A DNA stretch of 64,000 nucleotides from Escherichia phage P1: the sequence record MH445381.1; one strand, 5' to 3'. A program made the position numbers and the translations under genes. How positions within the stretch are numbered: the first letter of the stretch is position 1; the number at the start of each line of letters is the position of its first letter. The notes beneath the pieces are model-generated. The model saw nothing but the letters and a program-made list of their open reading frames with translations. It made no database searches and was not told the origin of the DNA. Below are positions 26,878 through 27,493 of this stretch, in pieces.

Positions 26878-27210
26878 TTAGTTACCGCTGATAGCGCGGT
26901 TGTAATCATTAACGTTGCGATTCTTCCTGTTAATCCCCATCAGCATCGTTTCTGTATCGAGGATATACGCTGGCAGATCATCAAAATATTCACTGCTAAA
27001 CTCTGGCATCCTGCACATAAATGCACTTTTTGGGGCAGGGTGGTTAACCTTTGTCGGCGTCGGCGTTAAATTCGCTGATCGACTCCCGGAGCAACCGCTG
27101 AGTGTCAGCAGGAATACGCTGGCGAACATTACCCGCCGCAACAAGTTGTTTCTGAACTTCAGCTTTTCGTTCCATTTGCCTGTCAGCATACTTGGCTTGT
27201 TCTGATTCAT
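26878..27210 (-). CDS. proline-rich lipoprotein (likely start at MFASVF, ~27129)
   Basis: Lipobox LTLSGC followed by TPTPTKVNHPAPKS. Confidence 0.6.
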   Translation of the reverse strand: MNQNKPSMLTGKWNEKLKFRNNLLRRVMFASVFLLTLSGCSGSRSANLTPTPTKVNHPAPKSAFMCRMPEFSSEYFDDLPAYILDTETMLMGINRKNRNVNDYNRAISGN

Positions 27211-27493
27211 TTTTCACTTCCTGGCTGTGAAAATGTTGCTCTGCTTTGTTCATCGTCTCAATGGTCTGGTTAAGATCCATTATTGACTTATCACGTTCCT
27301 TAACAGCCTGATCAAGACTGCCAATTTTCTCCATGGCTTGCTTTAGCTGATGACGTTCCCACGCAAACCCAGCACCAACAAGTGCGCAAATCAGAACAAG
27401 AACACCAGTAGCAGCAAGTTTCTCCTTCAAAGACAAAGCTGTTTTTAATGTAGAAAAGAATGACATGTCTTCCTCCTGAAGAAAAATTATCAA
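27044..27493 (-). CDS. N-terminally membrane-anchored periplasmic coiled-coil protein (likely start at MSFF, ~27466)
   Basis: TM segment ATGVLVLICALVGAGFAW then helical charged region; 3' end overlaps the lipoprotein gene out of frame. Confidence 0.55.
   Translation of the reverse strand: MIIFLQEEDMSFFSTLKTALSLKEKLAATGVLVLICALVGAGFAWERHQLKQAMEKIGSLDQAVKERDKSIMDLNQTIETMNKAEQHFHSQEVKNESEQAKYADRQMERKAEVQKQLVAAGNVRQRIPADTQRLLRESISEFNADADKG

Follow-up and report, generated by a model that had tools for sequence, protein, structure and literature searches.

The nearest relatives of the phage P1 gene pair described here are lysB and lysC of phage P2. Their products, LysB and LysC, have 141 and 96 residues, respectively, and the o-spanin gene lysC is read in the +1 frame and overlaps lysB by 146 nt. 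The two genes are located in the lysis cassette of P2, directly after holin, endolysin and lysA. The LysB/LysC families are represented by the NCBIfam models TIGR03495 and NF038368, and by PHROG 89 and 456. In phage lambda, the prototype, the corresponding proteins are Rz (phrog_13), a type II inner-membrane protein with two periplasmic Cys residues, and Rz1 (phrog_3198), an outer-membrane lipoprotein whose gene is fully embedded in that of Rz, also in the +1 frame. The mature form of Rz1 has 41 residues, of which 24% are Pro. The phage T4 pair PseT.3/PseT.2 is encoded by non-overlapping genes and represents the separated class, next to the embedded and overlapped ones. Its i-spanin has no periplasmic Cys, and the two Cys residues of the system are both in the o-spanin, which is larger than Rz1. 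At least one periplasmic Cys, for the formation of disulfide-linked homodimers, is found in one of the subunits in 507 of 528 two-component spanin systems.

The DNA analyzed here (the window, 64,000 nucleotides in its entirety) is an exact 64-kb slice of the Punavirus P1 genome MH422554.1, corresponding to positions 30325–94324. Two overlapping open reading frames on its minus strand are the phage P1 genes ppfA (gp064, 27044..27466) and mlp (gp063, 26878..27210). The region containing them is 100% identical to that in the Punavirus P1 genomes MH422554 and MH445380, and 96.4% identical to that in the P1 reference. Each of the two proteins differs from the reference at a single residue, M45 rather than I45 in PpfA and L23 rather than W23 in Mlp. 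The latter is due to a single T/G change, which is synonymous when read in the frame of ppfA.

This pair has been catalogued before. In the curated SpaninDB (Kongari et al. 2018), P1 gp064/PpfA is an overlapped i-spanin and gp063/Mlp an overlapped o-spanin, and the reference pair listed there has the same genes, starts, overlapped class, lipobox and Cys count as the pair in the window. Bednarek et al. (2022) describe ppfA and mlp as the predicted spanin genes of P1, place them in an operon that is not linked with the other lysis genes, and credit Summer et al. (2007) with identifying the pair. A preliminary description of this DNA, made from the letters alone, had recognized a spanin-like layout of the Rz/Rz1 type here and had suggested a comparison with curated spanin sets. 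Its assignment agrees with the accepted annotation, and all of the sequence-level features of spanins that were tested are present in the pair. The spanin reading is supported as correct and is not new, and PpfA and Mlp are predicted spanins.

The two genes share 167 nt (27044..27210, minus strand), which encode residues 86–140 of PpfA in one frame and residues 1–55 of Mlp in the other. The mlp gene is in the +1 frame relative to ppfA and extends 166 nt past its stop codon. An out-of-frame overlap at the 3′ end of the first gene, as proposed in the preliminary description, is therefore present, and the two genes are adjacent on one strand, as in the overlapped class of spanins. In comparison, the lambda Rz1 gene lies entirely within that of Rz, and the overlap in P2 is 21 nt shorter. 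When diverged relatives are compared, the nucleotide identity is 76% in the overlap and 60% in the part of ppfA outside it. The variable sites in the overlap track the third codon position of ppfA. In the part of mlp beyond the overlap, the variable columns are concentrated at the third codon position of mlp (19/54, 14/54 and 43/55 for positions 1, 2 and 3, respectively). Both ppfA and mlp are under coding constraint.

The start codon of ppfA is assigned to the ATG at 27466, because it is preceded by the Shine-Dalgarno sequence AGGAGG (27472..27477, minus strand, 5 nt before the ATG) and because RefSeq and SpaninDB agree on it. The GGAGG of this site is invariant across seven lineages. The region had originally been given as 26878–27493. 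Its place holds, but the upper limit of 27493 belongs to a TTG extension of ppfA, upstream of the supported start.

PpfA (140 residues) is a predicted i-spanin. A single transmembrane helix is located near its N terminus (residues 17–35, LAATGVLVLICALVGAGFA; 27362..27418, minus strand); its Kyte-Doolittle hydropathy averages 2.35, and Lys residues 8, 14 and 16 are on the N-terminal side of this segment. The only Cys residue of PpfA is inside this helix, and there are none in the periplasmic portion. SpaninDB divides the protein into a 36-residue N-terminal part and a 104-residue periplasmic domain. In the AlphaFold model (mean pLDDT 68.5), the transmembrane segment is part of a long helix (residues 13–110), which is followed by a break (residues 111–119) and a second helix (residues 120–137). 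Residues 46–73 (27248..27331, minus strand) form four coiled-coil-like heptads, with Ile, Leu, Val or Met at 7 of the 8 a/d positions. The heptad score of this segment was reached by 2 of 2000 shuffled sequences, in a crude scan rather than with a dedicated coiled-coil predictor. PpfA thus has the type II (N-in, C-out) topology, and the helical, coiled-coil periplasmic domain with two helical parts and a linker, that are expected of i-spanins, and the type II membrane protein with a periplasmic helical domain that had been proposed from the letters is what the transmembrane segment, the N-terminal Lys residues, the model and the heptads indicate. The C-terminal helix (residues 120–137; 27056..27109, minus strand) is the most conserved part of PpfA (…DTQRLLRESISEFNA…). 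Its columns are invariant in alignments A1 and A4, and the motif is retained at 28–31% overall identity. This helix is presumed to be the contact site for Mlp.

Mlp is a predicted o-spanin, with a precursor of 110 residues and a mature form of 71 residues. The Shine-Dalgarno sequence AGGAAG (27217..27222, minus strand) serves the start of the 110-residue precursor. This start is preferred because an upstream ATG with a Shine-Dalgarno sequence, either AGGAGG or AGGAAG, is always present at the same place in the relatives. A shorter form starting at the ATG at 27129 (83 residues, with a signal of normal length) was rejected as the conserved start, as Met28 is missing from JK004 and occupies a shifted position elsewhere, although this internal start may be used in addition. 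Gene callers usually overlook mlp or shorten it to 44–52 residues, and the source genome of the window is annotated with a 46-residue 'Rz1' that has no lipobox.

The lipobox of Mlp is Leu-Ser-Gly-Cys (residues 37–40; 27091..27102, minus strand), a signal peptidase II site with Cys40 as the lipidated +1 residue and Ser, rather than Asp, at +2. In all relatives this motif is L[SN][AGS]C followed by Ser, with an invariant Cys. Cleavage is predicted by LipoP at position 39 according to SpaninDB, where the signal peptide is flagged as 'too long'; at 39 residues, it is unusually long. The preliminary description of this protein as a Pro-rich lipoprotein is correct as to the lipoprotein, while its Pro content is moderate. 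There are 6 Pro among the 71 mature residues (8.5%), 5 of them within the first 32, as compared to the 24% in lambda Rz1 and the reported 9.5–9.7% in LysC from KS14 and KL3, two P2-like phages.

The only periplasmic Cys predicted for the pair is Cys66 of Mlp (Cys27 of the mature protein; 27013..27015, minus strand), in the motif FMCRMPEF. This Cys is invariant in alignment A5 and has a counterpart at the aligned position of P2 LysC. SpaninDB likewise counts one periplasmic Cys in Mlp and none in PpfA, and it is through Cys66 that the pair has the periplasmic Cys found in most two-component systems. Residues 62–105 of Mlp are among the most conserved segments of the two proteins. The structure model of Mlp has low confidence (pLDDT 57) and is unusable.

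Both proteins match spanin families. PpfA matches phrog_89 (E 1.2e-25) and Mlp matches phrog_30284 (E 3e-57), both of them annotated as 'Rz-like spanin'. P2 LysB is in the same phrog_89 (E 5.8e-61), and P2 LysC cross-matches phrog_30284. Mlp and LysC can also be aligned directly (BLASTP E 1e-7, 37% identity over 68 residues), with a common Cys-x-Met-Pro motif. The best NCBIfam matches are to LysB for PpfA (19 bits, below the cut-off of 92.75) and, independently of this match, to P2_Rz1/LysC for Mlp (14.7 bits, below the cut-off of 27). Pairwise comparison of PpfA with P2 LysB gave nothing significant, with a BLASTP E value of 57 and a probability of 1.4% in a thin profile-profile comparison with hhalign. 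The two pairs have similar sizes, and in both of them the o-spanin gene is in the +1 frame. The P1 pair differs in having no periplasmic Cys in the i-spanin and a 39-residue signal peptide in the o-spanin. A search of the PDB sequences with the PpfA profile produced one chance match, to a ribosomal protein (E 0.03).

The relationship to the other two systems is seen in their features. The combination of a type II inner-membrane protein and an outer-membrane lipoprotein is common to PpfA/Mlp and lambda Rz/Rz1, and the mechanism is presumed to be the same. However, neither PpfA nor Mlp matches the PHROGs of Rz and Rz1, and the similarity between PpfA and Rz is not significant either by BLASTP (E 0.26) or in a thin profile-profile comparison. 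A search of Pfam with both proteins (E ≤ 1) found no match to Rz or Rz1 and gave no more than coiled-coil noise below the threshold and a weak match for lipoprotein attachment. As in T4 PseT.3/PseT.2, the i-spanin of P1 has no periplasmic Cys and the o-spanin is larger than Rz1, a likeness of features.

The family is narrow, since 1.84 billion representatives, searched exhaustively with HMMER, gave only 34 matches, of which 3 are full-length and distant. Nearly all of the matches in a word-indexed protein search and in the locus scans are from P1-like elements, with 3 loci in the genome scan and 80 loci, at 97–100% identity, in the viral scan. The distant full-length relatives also match spanin PHROGs best. 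Relatives with 59–64%, 31% and 28% identity to PpfA retain the overlap, the lipobox, the Cys motif and an mlp ATG preceded by a Shine-Dalgarno sequence. That the overlap, lipobox and start of mlp persist down to 28–31% identity is a new observation of this analysis. Among 77 P1-like phage-plasmids, mlp and ppfA are two of the 21 extremely conserved genes.

The genomic location of the pair differs from that in P2. No match to Lyz, LydA, LydB, LydC or the 'putative antiholin' product beside lyz was found by tblastn within the window. In MH422554 coordinates, lyz is at 13806–14405, lydA/B/C at 23302–24420 and ppfA at 57368–57790. The endolysin and holin genes of P1 are therefore 33–43 kb from ppfA and mlp, outside the window, rather than next to them as in the cassette of P2. 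A position in the lysis cassette is usual for spanin genes, though not obligatory. That the pair is away from any endolysin or holin gene had been pointed out at the outset, and this separation is a recognized peculiarity of P1 (Bednarek et al. 2022).

Instead of a lysis gene, the pair adjoins a PAAR/upfB pair on one side and is followed, on the other, by the plasmid replicon. The same-strand block begins with upfC (28303..28587, minus strand), which encodes a PAAR-motif protein (phrog_281, E 2.5e-30; 26 bits for the Pfam PAAR_motif model, slightly below its cut-off of 27), and continues with upfB (27506..28294, minus strand), directly upstream of ppfA. The order PAAR-upfB-ppfA-mlp is found in all relatives examined. 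The gene downstream of mlp is upfA (26474..26866, minus strand), and in some relatives this position is occupied by a Gp49-family gene and in one it is empty.

A conserved motif in the 39-nt spacer between upfB and ppfA looks like an unannotated late promoter of the Lpa type (AAAGGACTT-CATT-GATAAT; 27486..27504, minus strand). It is absent from the P1 reference annotation and is new here. Promoters of this type lack a −35 element and have a 9-bp box at −22 (AAGTNACTT-like), 4 nt, and a −10 hexamer. Like the annotated LPlyz, LP23 and LP26, the candidate is laid out as 9 + 4 + 6, with two mismatches in the box and GATAAT as the −10 hexamer. Two mismatches are also present in the boxes of the annotated LP26 (AAATGACTA) and of LPpmgL (TAGTCATTT), the latter with AATATT as its −10 hexamer. 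The box and the −10 hexamer are conserved across seven lineages while the spacers are variable, and two lineages have a perfect AAGTGACTT. So loose a site is expected by chance about 2.6 times per 64 kb, or about 8e-4 times per 39-nt spacer. The candidate −10 hexamer is only 8 nt from the Shine-Dalgarno sequence, giving a leader of about 13 nt, much shorter than that of LP23 or LPlyz. A simple scan for sigma-70 promoters and terminators found no strong sigma-70 site on the ppfA strand and was uninformative. From this motif, late, Lpa-dependent transcription of ppfA would be expected. In RNA-seq data, whose counts are too low for timing, no ppfA or mlp signal is detected at 10 min, and at 20 min both genes show a small, non-significant rise, the same as that of lyz, lydA and lydD.

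We consider it probable that ppfA and mlp encode the two-component spanin of P1, of the overlapped P2 LysB/LysC type; the identity with the P1 genes, the membrane signals, the conserved overlapped layout, the coding constraint on both genes and the similarity to LysB/LysC are direct observations. PpfA would be anchored in the inner membrane by its single N-terminal helix, with its helical domain extending into the periplasm. After export, Mlp would receive its lipid on Cys40, and the Ser at +2 would direct it to the inner leaflet of the outer membrane. The further steps are modelled on the literature on lambda Rz/Rz1. Mlp probably dimerizes through its single periplasmic Cys, and the two proteins would bind each other through their C-terminal parts, to form a bridge that spans the periplasm and passes through the cell wall. 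At a late stage of infection, LydA and related holins of P1 would provide the trigger and the SAR endolysin Lyz would degrade the wall. The bridge, once freed, would then collapse and cause the inner membrane to merge with the outer one, and the last barrier to release would be gone.

The main alternative is that PpfA and Mlp are envelope proteins but neither required for, nor the only means of, disrupting the outer membrane in P1, either just tuning the timing or efficiency of lysis or acting beside a second route, so that their loss would have little effect. We regard this as unlikely, though it deserves some weight. In a dCas12a CRISPRi screen, the efficiency of plating was 1.3 for ppfA and 0.24 for mlp, and both genes were scored as non-essential for plaques, while lambda Rz was essential (5e-4) and P1 lyz gave 0.05. 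The top agar contained 5 mM CaCl2 and 5 mM MgSO4, 10 mM divalent cations in total. The plating result gives no support for a requirement, but the knock-down of ppfA and mlp may have been incomplete, and lambda R was also scored as non-essential in the same screen. In the P2 record, the entry for lysB reads 'nonessential; affects timing of lysis' and that for lysC 'non-essential; regulation of lysis', and the lysis system of P1 is unusually redundant, with several holin-like proteins (Bednarek et al. 2022). On the other hand, ppfA and mlp are strictly conserved across P1-like elements, and when the window was scanned, this pair was the only case of a small outer-membrane lipoprotein reading frame adjoining a type II membrane protein. 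The chance that PpfA/Mlp is not the outer-membrane opener of P1 at all, with a second outer-membrane route or a different envelope role for the pair, is likewise small. This doubt arises because plating is near intact upon knock-down and because the conservation is linked to PAAR/upfB and not to lysis genes.

A different possibility is that the pair is an envelope module expressed by the prophage, with a role such as superinfection exclusion or surface modification, and made in the lysogen from predicted sigma-70 promoters. A precedent is provided by outer-membrane lipoproteins with roles of this kind, such as lambda Bor. The pair adjoins the plasmid replicon (oriR/repA, parAB), and the P1 record predicts the sigma-70 promoters P1ppfA and P2ppfA inside upfB. 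However, an overlapped pair in which the partner is a type II coiled-coil protein is a spanin-specific arrangement, Mlp resembles a protein of the P2 lysis cassette, no PADLOC model is matched, and the simple scan revealed no strong sigma-70 site on the strand. We judge this reading to be improbable. A defense system had also been entertained for the five-gene block, and was dropped when a PADLOC scan of the block found nothing.

A role in the assembly of the virion or baseplate, or in infection, would account for the constant order with upfB and the co-oriented gene for the PAAR spike-tip protein UpfC, but tail parts do not carry lipoboxes or membrane anchors, and the promoter-like motif conserved between upfB and ppfA, together with the spanin-family matches, makes such a role very improbable. 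Finally, that mlp is a chance open frame, which its treatment by gene callers might suggest, is refuted by the codon-position bias beyond the overlap and by the conservation, down to 28% PpfA identity, of the open frame and of its ATG, lipobox, motifs and Shine-Dalgarno sequence, and has a negligible probability.

The assignment of ppfA and mlp as a spanin pair re-derives, from sequence only, the predicted spanins of a classic phage, and it matters little beyond housekeeping. Overlapped o-spanin genes are still routinely overlooked or shortened in annotation. If real, the candidate promoter would add a late promoter to those annotated in the P1 reference record, and it would explain how the spanin operon, although unlinked, is co-timed with lyz.

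The overlapping ppfA/mlp gene pair is best explained as a two-component spanin, a reading that we consider likely. The minus-strand gene order in the reference record is upfC (PAAR), upfB, ppfA, mlp, upfA, followed by oriR/repA and parAB. Across the 2.2 kb around the pair, identity is 100% with Punavirus P1 MH422554 and MH445380 and 96.4% with the P1 reference NC_005856, and positions 30325-94324 of MH422554.1 match the whole 64-kb window with zero mismatches. The preliminary description had placed two overlapping open reading frames at 26878-27493. Both are present there, on the minus strand, and the lower bound stands, but the upper bound reflects extension to a TTG. 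For ppfA, initiation at ATG 27466 is supported, with AGGAGG preceding it, and gives a protein of 140 aa (27044-27466, minus strand). The mlp gene (26878-27210, minus strand; 110 aa) is in the +1 frame relative to ppfA. The reference record annotates ppfA as 'possible periplasmic function' and mlp as 'membrane lipoprotein precursor … possibly involved in regulation of lysis', with the RefSeq product 'Rz-like spanin'. For the neighboring upfB, the RefSeq start (281 aa, with a 49-nt overlap with upfC) is probably placed too far upstream (28295-28351, minus strand), as the diverged relatives all begin at the equivalent of ATG 28294 (MLEKDYQ…, 258-262 aa).

PpfA has a single hydrophobic segment, which spans residues 17-35 and is flanked N-terminally by lysines, and no Cys outside this membrane helix. 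The AlphaFold2 model, based on a 12-sequence alignment (pLDDT 68.5), contains a long helix (residues 13-110), a break (111-119) and a second helix (120-137), in keeping with the type II membrane protein and periplasmic helical domain described earlier. In residues 46-73, I, L, V or M occupies 7 of the 8 a/d heptad positions, which is matched by only 2 of 2000 shuffles. PpfA belongs to a very narrow family: among 1.84 billion representative proteins, a profile search finds 34 matches at E <= 1e-3, mostly fragments from P1-like elements, with only three full-length distant members.

Mlp is a predicted lipoprotein, as proposed, with the lipobox LSG/C and Ser at +2. One further Cys, Cys66, is located in an invariant FMCRMPEF motif, and the structure model is mostly coil, with low confidence. 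The mature protein (71 aa) contains six Pro, five of them within the first 32 residues. The description 'proline-rich' therefore holds only moderately: the content of 8.5% is far below the 24% of lambda Rz1 and close to that reported for P2-type LysC proteins (9.5-9.7%). The signal peptide (27094-27210, minus strand) has a highly basic n-region of 27 residues. SpaninDB likewise uses the 110-aa form, although its 39-aa signal is flagged there as 'too long'. With initiation at an internal ATG (27129), the signal would be of more usual length (13 residues). However, JK004, a Cronobacter phage, lacks this Met and other relatives have it at a shifted position, whereas every lineage examined has the upstream ATG behind a Shine-Dalgarno sequence (AGGAGG or AGGAAG); the 110-aa form is kept for these reasons. 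Because all relatives, including those whose PpfA is only 28% identical, retain the long basic n-region and this upstream start, the unusual signal length seems to be a family trait rather than a start-codon error. Gene calls for mlp are wrong almost everywhere. The source genome of the window carries a 46-aa 'Rz1' (26878-27018, minus strand) that has neither signal peptide nor lipobox, JK004 and metagenome calls give fragments of 44-52 aa or nothing (L003 4458-4592, L091 3449-3589 and L093 3431-3589, loci of relatives), and full-length Mlp copies are few in protein databases.

Four lines of evidence show that the ppfA/mlp layout is more than chance. The out-of-frame 3' overlap (167 nt in the window) is kept in relatives: in P1-like elements of Salmonella, Klebsiella and Cronobacter (PpfA 59-64% identical), the genes are in the same order, the +1 frame is open, and both the mlp start and the lipobox are retained. 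An exhaustive profile search finds an overlapping +1-frame lipoprotein gene in two more distant lineages as well (PpfA 31% and 28% identical), and these two share the motifs LL[TS]LS[AS]C, MC[RT][ML]P, DL[PA][AG]YI and N[RN]KN..VN.YN. Where mlp alone is read, codon positions 1, 2 and 3 are variable in 19/54, 14/54 and 43/55 alignment columns, respectively, a bias that marks a translated gene. Within the stretch shared by both genes, variation tracks the third codon position of ppfA (37/56), so the PpfA C-terminus is the more constrained reading, with the Mlp signal peptide absorbing the changes. At 27144 (mlp codon 23), the window differs from the P1 reference by one base (T/G), which replaces Trp (reference) with Leu (window) and is silent in ppfA; this illustrates on a small scale how the ppfA frame dominates the constraint in the overlap.

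As the fourth line of evidence, scanning the entire window for lipoboxes reveals no other small outer-membrane lipoprotein ORF adjoining a type II membrane protein. A 170-aa lipoprotein (…AILLSGCQSSG; 11243-11755, minus strand) is encoded downstream of pmgC and directly upstream of a 'putative membrane protein' (10700-11239, minus strand), but neither its size, which is too large, nor the gene order fits a spanin pair; a site that loosely resembles a late promoter is at 11935. A 275-aa SPFH-domain lipoprotein (33731-34558, plus strand) has Asp at +2 (LTGC-D), and inner-membrane retention is therefore predicted.

The observation and its spanin interpretation are already known. The overlapped i-spanin/o-spanin reading in the style of Rz/Rz1 is right and agrees with the literature and with the curated database: SpaninDB (Kongari et al. 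2018) already lists P1 NC_005856 as class 'ovl', with gp064 (PpfA) as the overlapped i-spanin (140 aa, with 104 aa in the periplasmic domain; 0 Cys in the periplasm and 'one in TMD') and gp063 (Mlp) as the overlapped o-spanin (lipobox TLSG and 1 Cys; 110 aa, of which 71 in the mature form). Bednarek et al. 2022 (PMC9025707) name ppfA and mlp as the predicted spanin genes of P1, crediting their identification to Summer et al. 2007, and place them in an operon unlinked to the remaining lysis genes. In that paper and in Table S1 of bioRxiv 10.64898/2025.12.28.696737, the o-spanin is assigned to ppfA and the i-spanin to mlp. Judged by the encoded proteins, these labels are reversed, as the lipobox is in mlp and the N-terminal membrane helix in ppfA.

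PpfA matches phrog_89 'Rz-like spanin' (1.2e-25), which also includes P2 LysB, and Mlp matches phrog_30284 (3e-57), with which P2 LysC cross-matches. The alignment of Mlp with P2 LysC has an E value of 1e-7, and the best NCBIfam matches are LysB for PpfA and LysC for Mlp, both far under the cut-off. No link of either protein to the lambda Rz/Rz1 families was found. The pairwise similarity between PpfA and P2 LysB is not significant, and the pair is therefore kept out of the LysB/LysC equivalog families and filed as a P2-like overlapped type, by its layout and the Mlp-LysC similarity.

The pair was also correctly described as lying away from any endolysin or holin gene, since the window contains no lysis-protein homologue. 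In MH422554, the endolysin gene lyz and an adjoining small 'putative antiholin' ORF are at 13.5-14.4 kb, lydA/B/C at 23.3-24.4 kb, and ppfA at 57.4-57.8 kb; such scattering of the lysis genes has been described as a P1 peculiarity (Bednarek et al., PMC9025707). In contrast, P2 lysB/lysC directly follow holin, endolysin and lysA. The lysis-gene association missing in P1 is thus present in the closest relatives of the pair.

The 39-nt upfB-ppfA spacer contains a candidate late promoter of the type activated by Lpa, AAAGGACTT-CATT-GATAAT (27504-27486, minus strand). In the late promoters annotated in P1, a 9-bp '-22' box is followed by 4 nt and a -10 hexamer: LPlyz (AAGTGATTT-GCAT-TATCCT), LP23 (AAGTGACTT-TCAA-TAAAAT), LP26 (AAATGACTA-GCGG-TAGAAT) and LPpmgL (TAGTCATTT-GTTG-AATATT). 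At the homologous position, two diverged lineages have a perfect box, AAGTGACTT-nnnn-GAGAAT, and others have AAATGACCT, ATATGACCT or AAAGCACTT. Across relatives, the box and -10 bases and the Shine-Dalgarno sequence are invariant, while the spacers are variable. Equally loose sites number 8 in the window, against ~2.6 expected by chance; LP23 and LP26, both annotated, and a layout-matching site upstream of gene R account for three of the 8. The chance expectation inside the 39-nt spacer is ~8e-4. The P1 record has only predicted sigma-70 promoters here, with no late promoter annotated. The -10 is only 8 nt from the Shine-Dalgarno sequence, and the leader would therefore be ~13 nt, unlike those of other late promoters. 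The chances that this motif is a late promoter are about even, and the main claim does not include it.

A weaker look-alike, AAATAACCT-AAGT-TAAAAT (28638-28620, minus strand), is 33 nt upstream of the upfC start. Its -10 (TAnnAT) is conserved in relatives, its box in the left half only, and it has no -35 element. Some 30-45 nt upstream of this candidate promoter, between the divergent upfC and uhr blocks, is the C1 operator ATTGCTCTAATAAAT (Odmt in the reference; 28669-28683, plus strand), which is invariant in diverged relatives; the 15-mer recurs at 31945-31959 and 47946-47960. A perfect late-promoter box, AAGTGACTT-TAGC-CAGCAT (14631-14649, minus strand), is located within the kilA/repL region, where the genes are on the plus strand.

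In a published dCas12a knock-down screen, on plates with 5 mM Ca2+ and 5 mM Mg2+, the efficiency of plating was 1.3 for ppfA and 0.24 for mlp, and both were scored non-essential. On the same kind of plates, the values were 5e-4 for lambda Rz and 0.05 for P1 lyz, and lambda R was missed. The data for the pair are unfavourable or neutral. Because knock-down may have been incomplete and the screen missed lambda R, our confidence in the spanin assignment is lowered only modestly and stays high. By RNA-seq (10 and 20 min; bioRxiv 10.64898/2025.12.28.696737), ppfA and mlp are silent at 10 min and show a small, non-significant rise at 20 min, the same as lyz, lydA and lydD, a pattern compatible with late expression and too weak to count. 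By analogy with lambda Rz/Rz1, PpfA and Mlp would together bridge the inner and outer membranes, held in the cell-wall mesh. Degradation of the wall by Lyz would release this bridge, which may then bring about fusion of the two membranes.
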